This document shows, piece by piece, positions 6,234 through 44,998 of a stretch of DNA of 64,000 nt. The translations under genes and the position numbers were made by a program. Source of the DNA: a virus; the UHGV virus genome UHGV-0037280, one strand, 5' to 3'. Numbering within the stretch: position 1 is the stretch's first letter; each line of letters begins with the position of its first letter. The notes below the pieces were generated by a model that ran no database searches, was not told the origin of the DNA, and was given only the letters and a program-made list of their open reading frames with translations.

Positions 6234-8818
6234 AAGAGCTGTGCTATGGATCTGTTTGCAGCGGAATTGAAGCCGCGAGTATTGCCTGGGAACCGTTGGG
6301 TATGCGTCCGGCGTGGTTTGCTGAAATCGAGCCTTTTCCATCTGCCGTTCTTGCGCACCGCTGGCCCCATGTCGCCAACCTTGGCGACATGACAAAACTT
6401 GCCAAAAAAGTCCTGGCTGGGGAAATCGAATCCCCTGATGTGCTCGTCGGGGGTACGCCTTGTCAGGCATTCAGTATCGCGGGCTTACGTGGTGGGCTTG
6501 ATGATGAACGCGGCGCGCTAACTTTGAAGTATGTGGAGCTTGCAAATGCAATTGACGACAAACGGTCTGAGTCCTTCCTCAAACCGACAGTTATCGTCTG
6601 GGAAAATGTCCCAGGAGTCCTGTCATCGGCAGATAACGCCTTCGGATGTTTCCTTGCCGGATTGGCTGGAGAAGATGCGCCATTTGAACCAGGTGATCGA
6701 CCTGAATCAGGAAAAAGTAACGCGTTCTGGCGGTGGGATGGCAAAACCGGTTGCCATGCTCCAAAGTGGCCGCAGTGTGGTTGTATTTATGGACCGCAGC
6801 GAAAGGTGGCCTGGAGAATCCTTGATGCCCAATACTTCGGAGTGGCACAACGACGCCGACGCGTGTTTGTTGTCGCAAGTGCTCGAACAGACCTCGATCC
6901 CGCAACGGTACTTTTTGAGTTCGAAGGCGTGCGCCGGAATATTGCGCCGAGCAGAGGCGAGGGGAAGGAAGTTGCCGGAAATGTTGGAAATGGCATTAAA
7001 AGCGGGAGCCATTGGGATAACCCTGTAAATCCGCACCCGACACTTAACCAGTCACACAATACTGGCGGGATCGGCGCAAGTAACCAGGAGATTTTTGCGC
7101 AGCGCGGAAGTGGGCTTGTTGGTGCTTATCGAATGGTTGCATTTGGCGAATATGCTGATGATGAGACTGCTTCTACTGTCAAGGCCAGAGATTTTAAAGA
7201 TGCAACCGATTTAGCAGTTTTCAGTAGTACTGGTGCTGGTATTTGGCGTGAAGGTGCAGGCACTCTTCGTGCCAGAGCACAAGAAAGTCACGAACATCTG
7301 GCAGTGATGGCTATTCATGGAACACAGGATCCTGATGTTAATTGTGAATTGGCACATACTATTGGTCGTAACCATGGTCAAGAAAATGCAGTCGTAGCTT
7401 TTTCCTGCAAAGATTATGGACAAGATGTTTCTATTGAATGTTCTCCGACTTTACGATCTGGTAATACTGTTAATAGCAATCCAAATGCAGGATGCCCACC
7501 AGCTGTTGCGTATTCGCTACAACATGCACAAATTGGGCGAAAAGATGATGCTGGACCGCAGGGTAAAGGGTGGCAAAAAGAGATAAGTTTCACTCTTGAT
7601 TCCCGCGCTACAGCTGACGCCGTTGCGTTATCTTTTGGGGGGCAGAAAAGTATTGAAAAAGGCGAATTAGGTGATAATGGTTACTTACCTCATATGATGA
7701 GTGTTCGCCGTCTTACCCCTATCGAATGTGAAAGGCTGCAAGGTTTTCCTGATGGGCATACGTTGATCCCGACGGAAAAGCGTAAAAAAGTTAATTCAGA
7801 TGAACTGGTATATCTTCGCAATCACTATCCAGATTTAAGCGAAGAAGAGGCCGCGATGCTTGCAGCTGACGGACCTCGTTACAAAGCGATCGGCAATAGT
7901 ATGGCGATACCAGTAATGCGCTGGATTGGCGATCGGATTACCAAGGCTGCATGTCGGCAGAAGGAAGGGAGTGAAACAAAAGAGCGAAAAGTTAAACCAG
8001 CGGCAGAATTCGAACGGTCCATATTCAAATGGGCTGGTGGAAAATTTGGTGTTCTGGAACAAATCTTTCGCTATTTGCCAGAAGGGAAGCGCCTGATTGA
8101 ACCTTTCGTTGGTGGCGGAGCTGTCTTCATGAATGCCGGATACCAGGAAAATCTGCTAAATGATGTGAATGCTGACCTGATTAACTTTTACAAGACTCTG
8201 CAACGCGAGGCGCATTCACTTATCACTCTGGCACATCGTTTCTTCCAGGACTACAACACGCAGGAAGGATACCTGGCAGTACGGAATGCGTTTAACAAAC
8301 AAGTCTATGATGATTTACATCGCGCAGCGGCGTTTTTGTTCCTGAACCGACATTGTTTTAACGGATTGACGCGTTACAACCAAGCCGGTGAGTTCAATGT
8401 CGGTTATGGGAAGTATAAAACTCCGTATTTCCCATTGCAGGAGATGGAAGCCTTCCTTGGTGCGGAAGGGCGTTCTGAGTTTGTATGTGGTGATTTTGCT
8501 GCGGTGATTGAAGCTGCCGGAGAAGGAGATGTCATCTTTTGCGATCCGCCGTATGAACCGCTCCCAAATACAGAGGGATTCACGAACTATTCCGGTCATG
8601 ACTTTAAGTTTGAAGAGCAAAAACGCCTGGCGTCTCTGTTGACGGATGCTCATCGCCGAGGTGCAAAGGTTCTCATTACTAACAGTGGCGCGCCAAACAT
8701 CAGAGAACTTTATCAGGACAGTGGCTTCAGAGTGGAACCTCTTTTTGCCAGACGTTCTGTGTCTTGTAAGGGGGACACTCGAGGTGTTGCTCATGACGTT
8801 ATAGCAATATTGCTCTAA
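6230..8818 (+). CDS. dmt: Bifunctional-type DNA methyltransferase: N-terminal C5-cytosine MTase-like domain fused to C-terminal Dam-like N6-adenine MTase
   Basis: GTG start overlapping hrdC stop; motifs [12 protein letters not shown] and ENVPG (C5 MTase); FKWAGGK and DPPY (Dam-like) in C-terminal third. Confidence 0.85.
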
Positions 8819-8825
8819 TAAATTT
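8809..8825 (+). promoter_or_regulatory. C1 operator (perfect ATTGCTCTAATAAATTT) overlapping a -35/-10 promoter
   Basis: Exact consensus; TTGCTC at 8811-8816 and TAATAT at 8833-8838 with 16-nt spacing; partial inverted half-site follows. Confidence 0.65.
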
Positions 8826-9002
8826 ATTAGTGTAATATCGCCTCAATGAATCGTGATTTATAGAGCGATTTAGCTGTTAGCCGCGACAGGCGCGGCGGCA
8901 AGTATGGCGGGGTAGTGACTCCTTCCCCCTCATGACGCCGAGTTGCCAGGTTGACCATACGCCTAAGTGGCAACACCGAAGTGCGTTACGAGCTTCCAGT
9001 TT

Positions 9003-9028
9003 GCCCATCTTCGGGTGGGCGTTTTTTT
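9003..9028 (+). terminator. Intrinsic terminator (7-bp GC stem, TTCG loop, T8)
   Basis: gcccatc ttcg ggtgggc followed by gttttttt. Confidence 0.6.
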
Positions 9029-9493
9029 CAGGGTTTTCGTCATGGTTAGCGACTTTGCGGCGGTTTAGAAACTGACCATTAAAGTAAATGCAAACGATGA
9101 TCTGATGATGGTAGCGGCCTAAGAAGCCAGACGCCACGGGGTATGAGTCGTCCCCCGTCAAAAAATCGACCGCAGAGTGTCCCCGTCTGTGTATTAGGGA
9201 ACGGGGAGGCACAACAGGTAAGGGCGCTGGTGTGATTAACCAGATGAACGAGAAGGGGCCATCTGTTGGTCAGCGTCCTTTCCTGTTGCGTCTTCTTTTC
9301 AGCGTAACAGCGGTGCTTAACAGCACTTTGGGTACAGTTCCACGAATTTACGGGTATATCCCGTCATGCTGAAAGCGCTAATCACGCTGGAAGCCAGGGT
9401 TATGCATCCCCTGTTACCGAATTGCAGCCAGGGCGCGGTGCGCCGAAAAGCATACGGAGGTGGAAGCCCTCGCCGGAGACGTACCCGGCAAGT

Positions 9494-9569
9494 GATGGTG
9501 TAGCTCAGCGGTTAGAGCGGTTGACTGTTAATCAACGGGTCGATGGTTCAAATCCATCCACCATCGCCA
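9494..9569 (+). tRNA. tRNA-Asn (anticodon GTT)
   Basis: Cloverleaf by inspection: acceptor gatggtg/caccatc, anticodon stem gttga/tcaac with loop ctGTTaa, T-arm gatgg ttcaaat ccatc, 3' CCA encoded. Confidence 0.9.
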
Positions 9570-9571
9570 AT

Positions 9572-9647
9572 GCCGGTTTAGCTCAGTTGGTAGAGCGCCT
9601 GCCTTGTAAGCAGGATGTCAGCGGTTCGAGTCCGTTAATCGGCACCA
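9572..9647 (+). tRNA. tRNA-Thr (anticodon TGT)
   Basis: Acceptor gccggtt/aatcggc, anticodon stem cctgc/gcagg with loop ctTGTaa, T-loop ttcgagt, CCA encoded. Confidence 0.9.
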
Positions 9648-10575
9648 GCACAACAGGTAAGGGTATTTTGCGACGTCGGAGATCGCCGAGCTTGGCAGAG
9701 GGTTCGAATCCCTACGAAGTACCCTTACCGTTGTGATGAATGCGCAGGCTGATGCGCGAAAGACATTGCAGCTATTGCGGAAAAGAGCTGTTCGGCGGGG
9801 CAATTAAACGCCCGTGAGAGTCTGAAATAACCGCAAGCCGGAGATCAGCACCGGTCATCACAACACAACAGGTAAGGGCATTCTCCCTTATGGGGCTTGG
9901 CTTAAATGCATCGAGTGCTCTTACCGTTGTGATGAAGTGCAGCTCTTTGAAGCAACCAGAAGATAAGCATCTGGCTTCACAACATAAACCGCAGGAACGA
10001 CCAATAAACGGTAGTCCGTATGGAGAACACCCCGTTGAGGAAGAGGCCTGGCCGGAACCGTAACCGGCACTACAACGTTGAGAACACTGGCGTAACGGGG
10101 TCATATCCCAATCTACGAATAAATGTTGCGTTGCAGCGTGACAACCAGTGTTCTCAACATTGTGGTGAATGCACAGGCTGATGTGCCGCAACTACAGTAG
10201 TGCGCGCTTTGCGGGGCTTGCTACAACCCTGTGTCGGAGTTCAGCACCGACCATCACAGTTTGATTCTCTGGCATGAGCATAACGCTGAAATAAGTCCAG
10301 CCTGGTGCGGCCCGATCACCCGCCGTTAGCTCCACGAAACGGAGCACGTAACAGGTAAGAGCATTCTCCTGTAACGGGTTCATATCCCAATCTACAGGTC
10401 CACCAAGAATGCTCTTTCCGTTGCGGTGAATGCGGCTAAGCGCACGCGGGGAAATGGTTATATCAGTCCATTCATTTCTCCTTGTTTCCCCGTCCACGGT
10501 GGATAACCAGCCAAAGGACACCGGGAGGCACCCGGCACCGCAGCTTTTTTATTCGTTAAATAATGGAGTGAGAGG

Positions 10576-38060: not shown

Positions 38061-38190
38061 GTGATTTTTGACTGCCGATGTTACATTGAACCTGACATCT
38101 TGCGCCTTGAGGCATTTTCGGTTTATGCTTATCAGGCACCTCATTAAAACGGGTGCCGGGATTGAGACCCCGGATAATGTCAAAGGCGAC

Positions 38191-38216
38191 ACAGACGCCG
38201 AAAGCGTCTTTTTTTT
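38191..38216 (+). terminator. Intrinsic terminator (stem gacgc/gcgtc, T8)
   Basis: gacgc cgaaa gcgtc followed by tttttttt. Confidence 0.55.
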
Positions 38217-38265
38217 GTGTCATGCCATCGCACAGCCATACGTAGCGTTTAGCTCAGAGATCAAT

Positions 38266-38345
38266 GGTAGTGCTGGCTGGGCTGCCGAAAGGCAGGCCGG
38301 TTCCCTTTGACGCCGGTAGTCTCAACCCAGTCAGTGCTACCGCCA
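38266..38345 (+). ncRNA. Candidate c4-like antisense RNA of immunity module 1 (tRNA-like end ACCGCCA)
   Basis: 10-bp terminal stem ggtagtgctg/cagtgctacc followed by GCCA; internal cctttgac (38304-38311) is perfectly complementary to gtcaaagg (38383-38390) overlapping the icd SD. Confidence 0.4.
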
Positions 38346-38401
38346 TTGAGATTGAGACCTCACGCGGTAGCTCCTTAACTTAGTCAAAGGAGGCTGCCAT
38401 T

Positions 38402-44719: not shown

Positions 44720-44790
44720 CGCTGCTAAACAGGTGGCAGGACGTGACGGGGTTAGCAGACTGGCGTTAGTGAAACCAGCAGGCCGAAGCC
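44720..44790 (-). ncRNA. Candidate c4-like antisense RNA of module 2
   Basis: Minus-strand segment tcactaac (plus-strand gttagtga 44765-44772) is perfectly complementary to the SD-containing leader (plus-strand 44692-44699) of the second icd copy; boundaries approximate. Confidence 0.3.
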
Positions 44791-44998
44791 TCCCCATCAC
44801 GCCCCACCATAATTTGGGCGTAACGCGGTTTTACGGACACAAAAATACCGCAATATCGGATATCTGCGGTTGTCCACACTAACATTCAGGCTGCTAAACC
44901 CGGTCGCAGAATTTGCTACGACGTAGGAACTATAAGCCTGAACAACAGGAAGATCAATAGTCTGGCGTCCAATAGTAGTTTATTTGTTTCAATAAATC

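Follow-up and report, generated by a model that had tools for sequence, protein, structure and literature searches.

The 64,000-nt stretch analyzed here (virus genome UHGV-0037280, hereafter the window) belongs to a P1-like phage-plasmid. Its region 9000-10600 is 99.9% identical to phage vB_EcoM-813R1, 99.6% identical to RCS47, and 98.8% identical to reference P1 across 86% of the length. In the P1 annotation, dmt and the C1-controlled ban promoters and operator are followed by this region and then by trnI and ban, all on the + strand, and the region shares the C1-controlled Pban transcript with the tRNAs and ban. The untranslated leader of the ban operon extends over ~1.5 kb with no credible open reading frame (ORF), the first ORF beginning at 10576. 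It is occupied by an array in which five long hairpins (U1 to U5) alternate with closed, structured spacer modules (S0 to S5), together with the genes of tRNA-Asn and tRNA-Thr (Table 1). Each hairpin stands either directly after the 3' end of a tRNA or between two closed spacer modules. Our analysis shows that U1-U5 belong to a widespread, previously unnamed hairpin family of the operon leaders of temperate enterobacterial phages.

Table 1. Features of the ban-operon leader and its surroundings, in window coordinates
Feature	Position	Strand	Description	Values or basis
ban-operon promoter/operator	8793-8841	+	C1-controlled; drives transcription through the array	Homology to P1 annotation: P1ban, P2ban, operator Obanab (formerly Op72ab)
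DicF-like 5' RNA domain	8880-9028	+		P1 "dicF-like region"; likeness to Qin sequence upstream of dicF
S0	9031-9209	+	Spacer module ending in ...ACGGGGAGGCAC just before U1	Direct repeat: 9196-9212 resembles 10515-10531
U1	9210-9290	+	One long imperfect hairpin, paired A-U at base, then U-rich tract	-46.1 kcal/mol, z -5.9; R1 23.6 bits, E 5e-5
S1	9291-9493	+	Spacer module ending in CCGGAGACGTACCCGG hairpin just before tRNA-Asn	
tRNA-Asn (GUU)	9494-9569	+		ARAGORN; Rfam tRNA 74.5 bits
tRNA-Thr (UGU)	9572-9647	+	CCA encoded; U2 begins 2 nt further on	ARAGORN; Rfam tRNA 72.9 bits
U2	9649-9735	+	~23-bp stem with one bulged A; interior of a small hairpin plus consensus T-arm	-42.7 kcal/mol, z -5.3; R1 44.8 bits, E 2e-11
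S2	9736-9863	+	Closing stem GUGAUGA...UCAUCAC, 5' hairpin GCGCAGGCUGAUGCGC, 3' hairpin CCGGAGAUCAGCACCGG; missing in reference P1	
U3	9864-9931	+	Missing in reference P1	z -5.4; R1 49 bits, E 1e-12
S3	9932-10070	+	Spacer module ending in GCCGGAACCGUAACCGGCAC	
U4	10071-10164	+	22/23-bp stem, distinct arm GUUGAGAACACUGG, interior motif ACGGGGUCAUAUCCCAAUC	-49.2 kcal/mol, z -7.3; R1 34.9 bits, E 2e-8
S4	10165-10346	+	5' and 3' motifs as in S2, extra segment ending CUCCACGAAACGGAGCAC	
U5	10347-10425	+	Interior motif ACGGGUUCAUAUCCCAAUC	z -6.5; R1 30.7 bits, E 4e-7
S5	10422-10545	+	STnc100-like, then U-run and first ORF (10576)	Rfam STnc100 37.8 bits, under the gathering score of 47; fold z -3.9
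tRNA-Met/Ile	11648-11723	+		ARAGORN, Rfam

A sequence-only reading of this DNA had described five units, each with a stem of 15 to 20 bp around 40 to 55 nt and a gtgaatgc-like sequence on the 3' side. The units lie essentially where it placed them (9212-9288, 9649-9735, 9864-9931, 10072-10165, and 10348-10426), as judged by the matches of a covariance model of the family (R1, described below), whose limits are those of Table 1. They are long-stem hairpins as described, with outer stems that are in reality longer (17 to 27 bp, often lengthened by flanking pairs) and interiors of 29 to 54 nt. The 3' flank, G(A/G)TGAA(T)GC, is found after U2-U5 and not after U1. The stems vary among units and are complementary inside each, as had been noticed, with GGTAAGGG/CCCTTACC-type arms in U1, U2, U3, and U5 and GTTGAGAACACTGG/CCAGTGTTCTCAAC in U4. 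Folding energies range from -34.5 to -49.2 kcal/mol, corresponding to z-scores of -5.3 to -7.3 when each unit is compared with 200 dinucleotide shuffles, none of which folds as well (0/200). The arms were also recovered by an inverted-repeat tool and by purpose-made scans. Comparison with reference P1, which the same reading had proposed, shows that U1, U2, U4, and U5 are present there and that the spacer S2 and U3 are not.

The family was collected by a hairpin-seeking scan of 36 related loci (identified by L numbers where needed), with an anchored dynamic-programming step that admits a bulged A. Members were found in P1-like plasmids, in phage D6, in SSU5-like phage-plasmids, on a Klebsiella plasmid (pF81_1), and on plasmids of Cronobacter, Shigella sonnei, and Salmonella arizonae. 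The lambdoid phages mEp460 and 1720a-02 carry them just 3' of a cI-like repressor gene, a Klebsiella lambdoid phage (L005) carries one downstream of the late antiterminator Q, and several further prophages have them as well. The base of the stem, CACAAC...GUUGUG, is nearly invariant, and the remaining stem varies with compensation, as in the arm pairs GGUAAGGG/CCCUUACC, GUUGAGAACAC/GUGUUCUCAAC, GAUGAGGGC/GCUCUCAGC, GUUGAGCGGUU/GACCGCUCAAC, and ACAUACAAGUCG/CGGCUUGUAUGU. The interiors are unrelated across ~30 distinct members. In eight loci (the window, L002, L003, L009, L010, L011, L015, and L016), the hairpin starts at most ~3 nt past the CCA end of the last tRNA of the cluster, and in seven of these eight the array is on a phage-plasmid or plasmid. 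Outside these eight, the Klebsiella lambdoid phage L005 departs from the pattern, with a gap of ~60 nt between tRNA and hairpin. No Rfam family was found over the hairpins of the window and nine loci at gathering or permissive thresholds, except for weak matches to microRNA precursors, which are typical of long hairpins.

Two further elements were seen next to or near members of the family. In the phage-plasmids of D6, Klebsiella, and Shigella (L003 2607-2693, L009 1876-1962, and L011 972-1058), ARAGORN reports an 87-nt "tRNA-Ser(UGA)" with a family hairpin directly after it. This gene fails the Rfam tRNA gathering score and, according to the D6 record, is left unassigned by tRNAscan-SE; it is an atypical tRNA-like gene. 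In the window, a 15-bp perfect inverted repeat anchored by AAC...GTT and followed by CCGGTGAAATAA lies at 11549-11608, at the 3' end of the SPFH-family ORF and just upstream of trnI. R1 has no match at this position, and the repeat may be a chance occurrence or a decayed member of the family.

The claim that the stems are selected for structure, with compensatory substitutions, was upheld by an alignment of the arms only, built from 25 distinct hairpins after removal of the single bulged A of the AACAGG class. In this alignment 96% of the cells are paired, a fraction that is partly built in because the members were gathered by a scan that seeks hairpins, and both sides have changed in 14 of the 20 pairs. 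None of 500 shuffles attains these values, and slid controls reach 32 to 55%. Compensatory changes are also seen between orthologs: the ortholog of U3 in the Klebsiella lambdoid phage (L005 2640-2707) has an identical interior and seven differences in the arms, with pairing preserved, and the set formed by L029, L022, L023, and L025 shows such changes too.

For the covariance model R1, 20 hairpins were taken from phages and plasmids other than the window; the model has a CACAAC...GUUGUG base and 17 modelled pairs around a variable interior. Searched against the whole window, and thus independently of the hairpin-seeking scan, it finds exactly U1-U5 and nothing else (E values from 1e-12 to 5e-5). 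When matches with E up to 1 are admitted, the only addition is the minus strand of the U1 site. R1 also finds the expected members in 23 loci. The sequence-only reading had proposed a covariance model made from the five units, to be searched against related phage-plasmids; the model used here was made from other loci and recovers the five units.

The selected strand is the transcribed one. Under symmetric scoring, the stems read on the transcribed strand contain 32 G·U and 8 A·C oppositions, and a single over-extended stem of the U4 type accounts for the majority of the A·C. The excess of G·U over A·C therefore indicates a structure selected on the + strand, most simply RNA.

The spacers share a plan of their own. 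A 5' GUGRUGAAUGC pairs with a 3' UCAYCAC, and in between come a small hairpin (GCRCAGGCUGAUGYGC), a variable core, and a terminal hairpin (CCGG-N7-9-CCGG), followed by CAC. The tRNA pair after S1 occupies a slot otherwise held by a hairpin, and U2 comes directly next, so the gtgaatgc flank is the start of the following spacer module. The match of S5 to STnc100 (RF02076; E 3.4e-6, model positions 31-147) is the one listed in Table 1; judged by its sequence, S5 is a module of related architecture and not a certified STnc100 member. STnc100 and its relative PasD are prophage small RNAs (sRNAs) of lambdoid late regions (bioRxiv 10.64898/2026.05.13.724894; PMC12370729). Modules of the S5 type also occur between dicF and dicB in the K-12 prophage Qin and ahead of tciA in phage D6.

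Two observations concern such modules beyond the array proper. The 32 nt at 10513-10544, the 3' end of S5, are identical to the leader-proximal spacer of a type I-E CRISPR (clustered regularly interspaced short palindromic repeats) array in E. coli EC-1639 (NZ_LR025101.1). That array adjoins cas2e and cas1e, and the canonical AAG protospacer-adjacent motif is present on the minus strand of the window (10545-10547), which indicates that a host gained immunity against the STnc100-like module. Further downstream, the non-coding segment between trnI and ban (11724 to ~11920) has ~80% identity to the initial ~195 nt of the leader that follows the repressor gene in mEp460. The mEp460 counterpart directly precedes a family hairpin, and this is another shared structured module.

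Upstream of the array, an operator-like sequence, ATTGCTCTAATAAATTT, is found at 8808-8824, which we take to match the C1 operator consensus. A strong intrinsic terminator at 9002-9028, found by a terminator scan, closes the dicF-like region. The RNA encoded there resembles only the Qin sequence 5' of DicF, and the Rfam DicF model has no match to 8880-9028. No internal sigma-70 promoter was predicted in the array by a promoter scan, which is weak evidence because the known Pban was likewise missed. Our literature search found no published study of the P1 transcriptome or of its RNA processing. Elsewhere in the window, the usual RNAs of P1 immunity (immI) are present at two places (38136-38347 and 44729-44935), where Rfam models identify two antisense RNAs of the C4 type, one isrK-like RNA, and one target element (c4 a1/b1).

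From the observed structure, conservation, covariation, selected strand, array position, and mosaic boundaries of the hairpins, we propose with moderate confidence that U1-U5 are RNase III processing stems that punctuate the non-coding array of the ban-operon leader. Once C1 repression ends, the long transcript would fold during its synthesis, and the host RNase III would cut both strands of each stem, about one helical turn from the base. Through these cuts the tRNAs, the sRNA-like modules, and the mRNA further downstream (the SPFH-family gene, or tciA in P1, then trnI and ban) would become separate pieces that mature and decay independently, and the capped top of each hairpin would be freed as well. 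The conserved arms would double as patches of homology where unrelated temperate phages have swapped modules. Two features of the units agree with RNase III cleavage. E. coli RNase III acts on near-perfect helices of ~22 bp (PMC6212723), and the stems offer near-continuous helices of at least ~20 to 22 bp on the transcribed strand when their flanking pairs are counted. Moreover, they are placed downstream of Pban among tRNAs, sRNA-like modules, and ban, that is, between RNAs of one transcription unit that function separately.

The strongest support, though indirect, comes from K-12, where an RNase III-dependent end already reported coincides with a member of the family. R1 matches a hairpin in prophage Qin (L037 2174-2257, equal to NC_000913.3 1649173-1649256; E 5e-6), 126 nt upstream of dicF. 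According to published work, the dicBF transcript gives rise to a DicF precursor of 190 nt, and RNase III is required for the 5' end of this precursor (Faubladier 1990; bioRxiv 10.1101/2023.04.14.536235). Counting 190 nt back from the 3' end of DicF (2435) leads to 2246, a position inside the 3' arm of the Qin hairpin (2241-2257) and ~11 to 12 nt from the base of its stem.

Several points weigh against this proposal. We infer cleavage for all five units and for P1, and the Qin position was computed from a reported fragment length, not from an exactly mapped nucleotide. The tRNAs, the hairpins, and ban can be reached only by read-through of the terminator at 9002-9028. The pairing fraction is in part a product of how members were gathered, as said above. 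The asymmetry between G·U and A·C would also be expected if the same strand formed its hairpin as single-stranded DNA; since DNA hairpins tolerate G·T mismatches too, sequence alone does not tell such a folded DNA strand from RNA. The strict CACAAC/GUUGUG base is left unexplained by RNase III, since the enzyme needs no specific sequence; this base may reflect an alternative pairing with the closing stems of the spacers, gene conversion, or another factor. Finally, some interiors are conserved, namely that of U3 and its ortholog and the motif ACGGGNUCAUAWCCCAAUC, which a motif census found both in U4 and U5 and in the second mEp460 hairpin, hinting at a function beyond that of a cleavage site.

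The same stems could serve as stable barriers instead of cut sites, either as a shield against 3' exonucleases of the kind formed by repetitive extragenic palindromes (REP) or as a structured leader that blocks the loading of Rho. A place behind the 3' ends of tRNAs or between non-coding modules suits such a role equally well, the stems are very stable, and the leader lacks a credible ORF over its ~1.5 kb. We nevertheless consider it unlikely. Near-perfect helices of 20 to 27 bp are the canonical substrate of RNase III (PMC6212723), an RNase III-dependent end falls at the homologous hairpin of Qin, and a hairpin abutting CCA would prevent the 3' maturation of the tRNA unless it was taken off.

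The sequence-only reading had seen T-arm-like motifs in the loops and had suggested tRNA-derived or tRNA-mimicking RNAs; the loops of such RNAs could engage tRNA-binding enzymes or serve as decoys. The motifs it quoted are present in U2, U4, and U5, and only that of U2 fits the T-loop consensus. Tested for a stem of 4 to 5 bp and a 7-nt UUCRANY loop including A58, U2 conforms (AGGG-UUCGAAU-CCCU) and has its T-arm stacked beside the 3' strand of the long stem, whereas the loops of U4 (GUCAUAU) and U5 (UUCAUAU) have a U at the invariant A58, and U1 and U3 have no such motif. Two T-arm-like hairpins are held by a 1720a-02 hairpin (L006 2380-2504) and one by the L019/L015 type; moreover, hairpins share their array slot with tRNAs, and relatives carry insertions of tRNA-Tyr, Ser, or Arg. 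On the other side, most family members have no T-arm, its placement is inconsistent (beside the 5' strand in some members and the 3' strand in others), and conservation across the family concerns the stem rather than the loop. The units themselves are not tRNAs (the earlier reading had likewise excluded canonical tRNAs): tRNA and transfer-messenger RNA detection found nothing inside them, ARAGORN calls no tRNA besides the three true ones, and the Rfam tRNA model is silent in every unit at E values up to 10. A Y RNA-like reading was rejected as well, since the YrlA model (RF02553) matches only at 9514-9631, where the genuine tRNAs are encoded, and scores 25.6 bits there, below its gathering score of 69. 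With one consensus T-arm, no match to a tRNA model, and interiors that are unrelated across the family, the idea of tRNA mimicry was not borne out, and we regard it as quite improbable. The sporadic T-arm-like hairpins may be tRNA debris or reusable T-loop modules; they do not define the family.

The hairpins could also act mainly as DNA, as recombination sites or module boundaries, in the form of folded single strands resembling the attC sites of integrons or as mere patches of homology. The content of the array does change at hairpins among relatives, with spacers and hairpins gained or lost. The spacer S2 is shared with lambdoid phages at 98.5% identity, over a stretch that runs from ...CGTTGTG to CACAAC..., the bases of the hairpins. 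The S2-plus-U3 segment, an insertion when compared with P1, has the repeated 3' arm CTTACCGTTGTGATGAA at its limits. The arms thus coincide with mosaic boundaries. The kept AAC...GTT triplets at the base, the variable terminal structure, and the single bulged base of some units recall attC. The cores RYYYAAC/GTTRRRY are nevertheless lacking, as the bases read GCACAAC or CTACAAC and GTTGTGA or GTTGCGG; there is neither an unpaired central spacer nor a set of extrahelical bases, the stems being continuous save for one bulged A in some units; and no integron integrase or attI site is annotated within 1 to 2 kb of the arrays in the 18 annotated records, the window as a whole not having been searched for integrases. 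An attC-like mechanism is not supported. Ordinary homologous recombination between conserved arms (16 to 27 identical nt) suffices for the insertions and deletions and explains the mosaic boundaries. We give little credence, overall, to a role played mainly as DNA.

The tRNA content of the array shows a cassette-like pattern. The set of tRNAs in the slot varies among P1-like plasmids (Asn, Arg, Tyr, Thr, and Ser-like): tRNA-Arg(UCU) replaces tRNA-Asn in L016, L018, and L021, an extra tRNA-Tyr is found in L002, L011, and L014, and others have gained the odd tRNA-Ser(UGA)-like gene. Colicin E5 targets the tRNAs for Asn and Tyr, and colicin D those for Arg. A bolder extension, to which we assign a low probability, is that the hairpins mark the borders of cassettes in a mobile system of non-coding RNA genes and that their excised tops are functional small RNAs. 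Modules of tRNAs and sRNAs would then be exchanged among unrelated temperate phages, P1-like, SSU5-like, and lambdoid, at the CACAAC/GTTGTG stems. Freed tops, with the T-arm of U2, the U4/U5 motif, and the invariant U3 interior as candidates, could act as decoys or guides in phage-host conflict.

It is scarcely credible that the units are selfish miniature inverted-repeat elements (of the MITE, ERIC, or Correia type) or chance palindromes within the minus-strand genes plp and upl, despite their ~20-bp terminal inverted repeats around a short interior and a P1 annotation that spans the region with these two genes: dispersed copies, the lack of which makes a MITE unlikely, are missing, all copies in the window being in one array at 9.2 to 10.4 kb, no target-site duplications were seen, and copies elsewhere hold equivalent, fixed positions in operon leaders. 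In the window, plp (lipoprotein Plp) and upl correspond to 9772-10191 (-) and 10192-10521 (-); as annotated, the two extend across the hairpin array and over the 3' terminus of trnT. These ORFs have no Pfam match, are not called by the Prokaryotic Genome Annotation Pipeline (PGAP) in E. coli RefSeq records, and are broken by insertions and deletions among relatives; plp and upl are probably not genes. Nor are the units CRISPR repeats, in agreement with the earlier reading: the direct repeats are short fragments of arms with 62 to 100% identity and irregular spacing, and the elements themselves are inverted repeats.

These results replace two doubtful P1 genes with a structured non-coding array and describe a covarying RNA motif that is outside Rfam 15 and common in phages and phage-plasmids of Escherichia, Shigella, Salmonella, Klebsiella, and Cronobacter. 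The RNase III site that Faubladier et al. mapped in Qin in 1990 now appears to belong to the family, and the literature we searched has no description of it as such. RNase III processing at these stems would offer a testable model for the maturation of tRNAs and of sRNAs of the STnc100/PasD type from the long transcripts of temperate phages controlled by repressors or antiterminators, as well as a model for the movement of RNA modules between phages. If RNase III was not involved, the strictly conserved stem base would hint at an unknown recognition factor.

The hairpins can be compared with five known systems. Like integron attC sites, they are imperfect hairpins of 60 to 130 nt located at cassette boundaries, with a conserved AAC...GTT base, a non-conserved stem, and a terminal structure that varies; they differ in failing the attC cores, central spacer, and extrahelical bases and in being located in transcribed leaders of several unrelated phage types. 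The likeness to STnc100 and PasD is one of the spacers, not of the hairpins: the spacers share the GGUGAAU... 5' end pairing with the 3' end and the terminal CCGGGAGGCACCCGG hairpin, with S5 under the gathering score and S2-S4 undetected by the Rfam model. The classical phage sites cut by host RNase III (T7 R1-R5, the lambda N leader, and sib) separate protein-coding genes, and their internal loops, where present as is often the case, give single-strand cuts. Like them, the P1-type hairpins are long and stand between functional units of long phage transcripts, but they are near-perfect, their interiors are large and variable, and the units they separate are non-coding. In the E. coli metY-nusA-infB operon, an RNase III hairpin likewise follows a tRNA (metY) within a polycistronic transcript, and its cleavage releases the tRNA and starts the decay of the downstream RNA (Regnier and Grunberg-Manago 1989, as cited in PMC5371410); it has no sequence relationship to the family and is a single site, not a repeated and covarying set with a conserved base. 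The RNase III site of the DicF precursor in Qin differs from the P1-type hairpins in that its copy is degenerate (22.8 bits) and has no adjoining tRNA, and shares with them membership of the family defined by R1, a repressor-controlled prophage operon, surrounding non-coding modules, and the S5-type spacer between dicF and dicB.

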